A DNA stretch of 64,000 bases from Rozella allomycis CSF55 (lineage: Eukaryota). Positions 31,564 through 32,290 of the stretch are shown in pieces. Where the stretch lies: positions 141,341 through 205,340 of the forward strand of contig KE561047.1 of NCBI GenBank assembly GCA_000442015.1, read 5' to 3'. The notes under the pieces were generated by a model, which saw only the letters and a list, made by a program, of their open reading frames with translations, had not been told where the DNA came from and searched no databases. A program made the translations under genes and the position numbers. Each line of letters starts with the position of its first letter. Within the stretch, counting starts at the first letter, position 1.

Positions 31564-32290
31564 CTACAATAGATTGCATCCTTTCTTCTTTTTTGCCTTC
31601 TTTGGATTGGTTTTGTTGTTATGGCGGCGAATTTCCCTTACAAGTGTGAAAAACGCACTTTCTACATTAATTTGTTTCTTCGCTGAAGTTTCCATAAATT
31701 TTATGCCAAAGGTATTGGCTAAGTCTTGCCCCTCTAAAGTCATAGTAGAATATTAATGGAACCTTGAGTGGACACAATACGTTCGTCCTCCAAGTCACAT
31801 TTATTTCCGAGAATGATAGCAGGGAAATAGTCTTTATCCTTGACACGTAATATTTGCTTATAAAAGGTAGTGACTTCGTCGAATGAAGCTCGAGACGTAA
31901 TTGAGTAAACGCATAAAAATCCTTCTCCGCTTCTCATGTACTGCTCTCTCATAGCGCTAAAAGTTTATGACAAAGCAATAATACCTATAATAATGCATGT
32001 AACATAATACTTACCTGTATTCCTCTTGTCCCGCAGTGTCTAGAACGTCTAGCAATGCAACTTCTTCATCAATGACACATTGTTTCCTGTATGAATCTAT
32101 TTAAAACACATATAATTATTATACCCTCAATAGTTGGATCATATTCGTCTACAAAATGCCCTTGGATGAACTTTATTGTCAGTGCAGACTTTCCAACACC
32201 TGCAATAAAGCTACATCAAAATTCATTACCACCTCCACCAACTACTACTAGTTTGTATTCCTTTGCCAATGAATTGTTTGACCTGCTCAT
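31564..32290 (-). CDS. RAS: Ras GTPase; third intron is a 30+28 nt tandem
   Basis: [66 protein letters not shown] CaaX. Confidence 0.96.

Follow-up and report, generated by a model that had tools for sequence, protein, structure and literature searches.

Two abutting minimal introns in a Ras gene of Rozella allomycis, plausibly removed one unit at a time

Recursively spliced introns of animals span kilobases. Pairs of U2 introns that abut and are taken out by recursive splicing are an established class found in animals (PMC6616335), a Drosophila survey counts 196 zero-nucleotide exons (bioRxiv 10.1101/006163), and two zero-length-exon cases, one of them inside a 336-nt intron, are given for S. 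pombe (bioRxiv 10.1101/226894). We here describe a 58-nt intron in a Ras-family GTPase gene of the parasitic fungus Rozella allomycis CSF55, found in 64 kb of contig KE561047.1 (positions 141,341 to 205,340; hereafter the window, to which all counts refer), which has the build of two minimal introns placed back to back. As at the ratchet points of Drosophila and vertebrates and in the S. pombe cases, an AG/GT lies inside one intervening sequence, and removal of the upstream part would recreate a 5′ splice site (10.1101/006163, 10.1101/226894, PMC6616335). Unlike the known recursive cases (336 nt in S. pombe; 10.1101/226894), the Rozella sequences total 56-58 nt, each part being a minimal intron of modal size; the two parts could be removed in either order, and use of the internal sites is predicted here from the sequence.

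Among fungal systems, the Rozella intron resembles the stwintrons of filamentous fungi in being a complex sequence that would need two consecutive U2-type reactions (PMC6616335). In stwintrons the inner intron lies within a donor, branch site or acceptor belonging to the outer intron, which makes the order of removal obligatory (PMC6616335), whereas in Rozella the units abut, each is complete and neither interrupts anything. We do not assign the Rozella sequences to the stwintron class: a nested 26 + 32-nt route is optional in the Ras intron and absent in a second pair, located in a dynein light chain (LC8-type) gene. The window further resembles the ultra-short-intron genomes of ciliates, microsporidia, dicyemids and myxozoans, with narrow length distributions below ~30 nt and signals reduced to about GTA...AG (PMC13644364). 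In the portion of that 2026 paper at hand, Rozella is not listed and the words 'tandem' and 'recursive' do not appear (PMC13644364). No description of doubled or abutting mini-introns was found in the literature searched on Rozella splicing and on ultra-short or tandem introns, the coverage of which was incomplete and did not extend to supplements. New here would be the scale and the implied reason, that is, minimal-intron doublets of less than 60 nt in total in a genome where intron length appears to be capped.

The Ras gene and the parts of it that matter here are the following.

31564..32290, minus strand: Ras-family GTPase gene with five exons, ATG at 32290, stop TAG at 31566..31564, 193 aa, CAAX-type end (exon model and translation)
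32200..32229, minus strand: Ras intron 1, 30 nt (exon model)
32097..32124, minus strand: Ras intron 2, 28 nt (exon model)
32015..32096, minus strand: Ras exon 3, ending in ...QEEY and the AG of a Ser codon (sequence; Pfam Ras profile to position 61)
31985..32014, minus strand: tandem intron unit 1, 30 nt, GTAAGT...TATAG (sequence and exon model)
31957..31984, minus strand: tandem intron unit 2, 28 nt, GTATTA...TTTTAG (sequence and exon model)
31763..31956, minus strand: Ras exon 4, starting with the C of the Ser codon, then AMREQY... (exon model; Pfam Ras from position 63)
31734..31762, minus strand: Ras intron 4, 29 nt (exon model)

The P-loop, DTAGQE and CAAX motifs define the Ras family, and the translation carries all three (P-loop GxxxxGKS, DTAGQE switch II motif and C-terminal CAAX box). 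The product of exon 4 is 75-84% identical to fungal Ras proteins and 100% identical to the R. allomycis protein P0006. Exon 3 matches positions 37-61 of profile PF00071 (E 2e-5) and exon 4 positions 63-125 (E 8.5e-18), the missing position between them being the split Ser codon AG/C; P0006 reads ...GQEEYSAMREQY... without a gap across the site. Because of this 61/63 join and the continuous reading of P0006, the outer boundaries of the 58-nt intron (32014..31957, minus strand), with a GT at 32014 and an AG ending at 31957 inside the Ser codon of QEEY-S-AMR, are independent of the gene model. Within the intron, at the TATAG/GTATTA junction at 31985/31984, a 3′ splice site directly abuts a 5′ splice site, giving units of 30 and 28 nt, and removal of unit 1 would join the ...CAG end of exon 3 to the GTATTA of unit 2 and so rebuild a 5′ splice site. 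If unit 1 is kept the message reads AGG TAA, and if unit 2 is kept it runs into its own TAG, so that a premature stop results either way. A sequence-only reading of this stretch had proposed a tandem 30 + 28-nt intron at 31957-32014 with AG/GTA at 31985/31984, with outer ends fixed by the protein and no exon in between, and had regarded single-unit removal as non-productive; its coordinates and letters are correct on the minus strand, the profile join and the gap-free P0006 bear out the fixed boundaries, and the two premature stops agree with the last point. The structural description, two intron-like units joined at AG/GTA with no exon between them, is supported. As a separate observation, at about 31618 (minus strand), near the C-terminus, the Ras of the window and P0006 differ, with R in the former and K in the latter (TLVREIRR versus TLVKEIRR), an assembly or strain difference.

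The same build recurs in an unrelated gene of the window.

46731..47191, plus strand: dynein light chain (LC8-type) gene (gene model; PF01221 on exon 3; P0121 begins with the same spliced N-terminus)
46851..46878, plus strand: LC8 tandem unit 1, 28 nt, GTACTAAC...TTTAG (gene model; score 9.4)
46879..46906, plus strand: LC8 tandem unit 2, 28 nt, GTACTCC...AATAG (gene model; score 8.9)
46991..47020, plus strand: LC8 intron 3, 30 nt, starting with GTACT (gene model)

The 56-nt interruption at 46851..46906 consists of 28 + 28 nt with the internal junction TTTAG/GTACTC, and its two back-to-back introns were placed by the same gene finder run as the rest of the catalogue described below. Taking out one unit alone leads to a stop; with both out, the product reads ...TFTYALVK/YSDMMDEV..., which is the start of the annotated P0121, and the join ...ALVK/YSDM... 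is gap-free against all seven homologues compared (7/7). The only two homology-fixed long intervening sequences in the window are exact doublets of modal-size units joined at AG/GTA. Two further features of the LC8 locus were observed. The introns starting at 46851, 46879 and 46991 all begin with GTACT, a donor variant present in none of the 110 other introns of the catalogue, and AGTACT or GGTACT occurs at each of these three boundaries; in addition, a stem forms when the doublet is folded with 10-nt flanks (z -2.2), and 5 of 200 shuffled sequences fold equally well.

The units have the size that is usual in this stretch of genome, which has standard stop codons and ~35% G+C; three exon queries from it were each 100% identical to an R. 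allomycis CSF55 protein (P0006, P0121 and P0132). Screens that link open reading frames (ORFs) in the window gave an intron length peak at 26-30 nt. A catalogue was obtained with a home-made dynamic-programming gene finder that combines codon log-odds, splice-site matrices and a length prior favouring introns of 22-34 nt; at the chosen penalty it returned 120 introns, 113 of them no longer than 36 nt, and 106 of these 113 fall in 26-30 nt. The composition of the 113 is as follows.

Lengths: 26 nt, 24; 27 nt, 19; 28 nt, 28; 29 nt, 26; 30 nt, 9; other, 7
Donors: GTAA, 78; GTAT, 21; GTAC, 6; other, 8
Acceptors: TAG, 68; AAG, 34; CAG, 10; GAG, 1

The AG that is used is the first one at least 26 nt past the donor in 107 of the 111 single introns, a figure made partly circular by the length prior. 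In this catalogue, which is model-based and not RNA-based, the introns have the mode below about 30 nt and the narrow spread by which ultra-short introns are recognized. The models agree with the annotated proteins for all five introns of the neighbouring GDP-mannose 4,6-dehydratase (GMD) gene and for the LC8 N-terminus and units. Published fungal intron medians range from 29 to 197 bp in a species set that includes R. allomycis, the accessible part of the paper giving no value per species (PMC8042348), and the tight distribution in the window fits a fungal median as low as 29 bp (PMC8042348).

The central AG/GT might be fortuitous, and the chance of this was calculated analytically from a first-order model of single-intron interiors, in which AG/GT has a frequency of 0.0017 per position.

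Ras 58-nt intron: P 0.005 (units of 26-30 nt), P 0.018 (units of 22-35 nt)
LC8 56-nt intron: P 0.008 (units of 26-30 nt), P 0.022 (units of 22-35 nt)
Ras and LC8 jointly: P 4e-5 (units of 26-30 nt), P 4e-4 (units of 22-35 nt)

If GTA instead of GT is demanded, these values become about tenfold lower, and the earlier suspicion that AG/GTA at the midpoint of both introns is unlikely to be accidental is confirmed by the joint values. Splice-site quality differs among the sites. Ras unit 1, with a score of 12.6, stands at the 89th percentile of the 111 single introns, and the internal Ras acceptor, 30 nt from the donor, is the top-scoring acceptor of the catalogue (100th percentile); among the catalogue sites, the internal donor ranks at the 26th percentile. 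The outer Ras acceptor, 58 nt from the donor and needed by every model, is the weakest in the catalogue. The internal sites of LC8 rank at the 50th percentile (acceptor) and the 9th (donor). By the first-AG rule the internal AG, rather than the distal one, would be chosen.

These figures bear on the simplest competing explanation, that the Ras gene simply has an ordinary intron of 58 nt here, spliced out in one reaction at its outer sites, the central AG/GTA being an unused leftover of its origin or a product of chance. Spliceosomes elsewhere easily handle introns of 58 nt. The outer donor GTAAGT is strong, the annotators had the 58 nt removed (P0006), the public annotation has other introns of 46-158 nt nearby, and three of 80 other Ras loci carry a single intron of 44-113 nt at the same site. 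On the other side are the low chance values, 0.005-0.018 for the Ras intron and 4e-5 to 4e-4 together with LC8, and the internal acceptor, which scores above the outer one. Since the other 111 introns have been pressed to 26-30 nt, a freely spliced sequence of 58 nt would have shrunk like them and an unused pair of internal sites would have decayed, yet both units lie in the 26-30-nt mode. No long non-tandem intron could be confirmed in the window. On balance we consider single-step removal of one ordinary intron possible but rather unlikely.

We favour instead, with a probability of about 0.6, the view that the 58-nt stretch consists of two minimal introns of U2 type (30 + 28 nt) that abut at a zero-length exon and would be removed by two reactions in either order. 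For each 5′ splice site the spliceosome would choose as its partner the first suitable AG some 26-30 nt further on and thus take out one unit per reaction. Were unit 1 removed first, the ...CAG of exon 3 would be joined to GTATTA..., recreating a 5′ splice site from which unit 2 would then be excised; removal of unit 2 first would be equally productive, and the QEEYSAMR frame would arise only once both units are gone. The internal AG sits where this spliceosome appears to look, and two separately constrained introns would be lost only by a rare exact deletion. Unit-by-unit (recursive) removal is plausible on this evidence, and so is a general rule in this genome, for which the basis is two out of two cases in 64 kb. 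A stronger version would hold that there is a hard limit of about 32-35 nt per splicing event, so that longer sequences could exist only as AG/GT chains of minimal introns with obligatory recursion; we regard this version as tentative and are inclined to doubt it.

Two further readings were considered. In the first, the Ras intron would follow a nested, stwintron-like route, in which an inner 26-nt intron (32010..31985, starting at the second GT of GTAAGT) leaves first and GTAAGT is rebuilt in front of unit 2, making a 32-nt outer intron. The inner candidate scores 11.9, and GTATTAT follows the respective GT in both units, so the donor would be rebuilt almost unchanged. However, introns of 32 nt are rare (1 of 113), the LC8 pair has no such overlapping donor, and the abutting arrangement requires no special order of removal; a nested route is very improbable. 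In the second, which the sequence-only reading had put forward as a switch acting on Ras, removal of one unit would make a non-productive mRNA on purpose. Whichever unit is kept, an early stop follows, but this is true of almost any intron retained here, and the other tandem pair sits in an unrelated housekeeping gene, that for the dynein light chain. No extra conserved motif or structure was found in the two introns, and nothing in the sequence points to regulation; this proposal is therefore not upheld, and we consider a regulatory function very improbable. Folding z is about 0 for both the 58-nt and the 56-nt intron, so that no RNA structure that would shorten either intron was seen.

Finally, the second unit could be a spurious duplication or insertion introduced during assembly. 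Only one contig (X3, record 12) spans the site, and the assembly may have been built from it; X4 begins at 32225, and the site is not covered by X6. Against an artefact, the two units are dissimilar, the X3 contig shows 0 differences from the window over 3749 nt, the same build occurs at an unrelated locus, and proteins of the species annotated on other contigs need an intron at the same place. An assembly error is extremely improbable.

Several points weigh against removal of the doublets one unit at a time, or against the figures on which it leans. We infer two-step removal from the arrangement of sites and not from splicing intermediates, lariats or the mature junction, and there are only two cases, in 64 kb. 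Nothing in the sequence would stop a spliceosome from joining the outer sites directly, in one step. The total score of Ras unit 2, 6.9, is at the 5th percentile, because it includes the outer acceptor that is the weakest in the catalogue. The single DNA contig across the Ras site comes from a run on which the assembly itself may be based. An RNA run (X12) searched over 18400..38399 gave 16 records, all partial, of which the eight listed pieces are 25-38 nt long and diverge from the stretch beyond. Both the tight length distribution and the first-AG rule are partly circular, as the catalogue comes from a gene finder with a 22-34-nt prior. This gene finder also missed a probable in-frame intron of 27 nt. 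In addition, the annotation of P0121 removes 46-158 nt at five places (48753-51529, plus strand) where introns of 27-28 nt and in-frame coding sequence fit; if the annotation is right, long non-tandem introns do exist here and the length ceiling is wrong.

The missed 27-nt piece lies at 62885-62859 (minus strand) in a gene whose product we take, by eye and with no profile search, to be Bet v1/SRPBCC-like. It is a perfect intron-like sequence, GTAAAT...AATAG, in frame and stop-free, which the gene finder read through, and is probably a stop-free intron with a length that is a multiple of three.

As to the five disputed places, they lie in a repeat-protein gene (47282..52629, plus strand) in which one of six modelled introns agrees with the public model. 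The pieces that the annotation removes resemble pieces that are kept in other repeats (...VQII..., ...VYP...; E 0.02-0.14), which weakly favours the short introns over the annotated ones of 46-158 nt. The earlier statement that the Ras and LC8 introns are the only two longer than 35 nt holds for our set of gene models, the other seven model introns above 36 nt being artefacts, and fails for the public annotation of this neighbouring gene, which has five longer ones. Inspection accounted for the seven (7/7) as follows: one of 65 nt spans an N; those of 62, 77 and 64 nt run antisense to a Ser-rich SRP40-like gene; one of 120 nt is the spacer ahead of the start codon of a gene, presumably that of the proteasome subunit Rpn6 (judged by eye, with no profile search); one of 83 nt comes after a stop codon; and one of 82 nt results from wrong parsing of the 58-nt Ras intron. 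Over hundreds of codons the antisense strand of the SRP40-like gene contains no stop, which misleads gene finding based on ORFs.

12532-14340, plus strand: long Ser-rich SRP40-like gene (Pfam SRP40_C)

A scan of the window for doublets in which both units score at least 6 gave 30 hits. The candidate at 11784..11718 (32 + 35 nt) was rejected: Pfam DUF5578 covers positions 24-68 in the upstream exon and 70-119 from the first residue of the disputed piece, and because the domain is continuous the 35 nt are coding and there is a single intron of 32 nt. At 37919..37977, a 26-nt solution keeps coding residues that look conserved by eye and that we take, with no profile used, to resemble the conserved C-terminal part of ribosomal protein L13; this candidate was likewise rejected, as a single intron. 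The candidate at 62965..62908 is, by eye, a single intron beside conserved coding sequence, and the remaining pairs consist of an exon end followed by a normal intron or run antisense to a real gene.

The public models also join genes at both doublet loci. P0006 fuses GDP-mannose 4,6-dehydratase with Ras (31564-33627, minus strand) across a spacer of ~96 nt, and P0121 fuses the dynein light chain, with its conserved C-terminus cut off, to the following repeat protein of 1700 aa (46731-52629, plus strand).

The history of the Ras intron was approached through 80 metagenomic Ras loci that are 73-81% identical in protein over exon 4. At the Ser codon 77 of them are intron-less, and three eukaryotic Ras genes (L001, L002 and L029) have one intron at the same place and in the same phase, the lengths being 77, 113 and 44 nt; none of these three, which are unrelated single introns, contains an internal AGGT. 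The Ser codon is AGC split as AG/C in the three, and in the 77 intron-less loci it is TCN in 74, AGY in two and replaced by Ala in one. L029 also breaks at or beside the other intron positions of the Rozella Ras gene. From this comparison the intron position appears to be old, or at least recurrent, and to hold a single intron elsewhere. In 11 comparisons of units with each other or with flanking exons no significant similarity was found, the best being LC8 unit 1 with LC8 intron 3 (P 0.047, uncorrected); as the units resemble neither each other nor the flanking exons, a recent duplication as the origin of the doublet is not supported. The doublet probably arose from one older, longer intron at an ancient position in the course of a genome-wide miniaturisation of introns, and would have stayed two units long because each unit is under its own constraint to function as an intron.

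Elsewhere in the window, the depth of DNA-run contigs at 28400-29740, and also at 24400-25070 and 26400-27740, exceeds that of the flanks by a factor of 10 to 100, and joints and variants are numerous; these stretches are a high-copy repeat region. Single Ns occur at 28030 and 29279, and two identical intron-like pieces of 26 nt at 27795 and 28151. The only Rfam matches in the window are two tRNA genes.

1783-1865, plus strand: tRNA-Ser (AGA) (Rfam)
16875-16946, minus strand: tRNA-Pro (TGG) (Rfam)

The limits on intron length are an open question, and lineages with ultra-short introns are a natural place to study them. Unit-by-unit removal of the Rozella doublets would mean that 58 nt is more than a spliceosome tuned to about 28 nt can span, or does span, and that the solution found by evolution was to subdivide introns. 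If there is in addition a length ceiling, intron lengths would be quantised genome-wide, clustering near 28, 56 and perhaps 84 nt with gaps in between, and this would be the first case of recursion serving a length ceiling and not very long introns. For the annotation of R. allomycis, gene finders blind to such a rule would fuse neighbouring genes and invent long introns.
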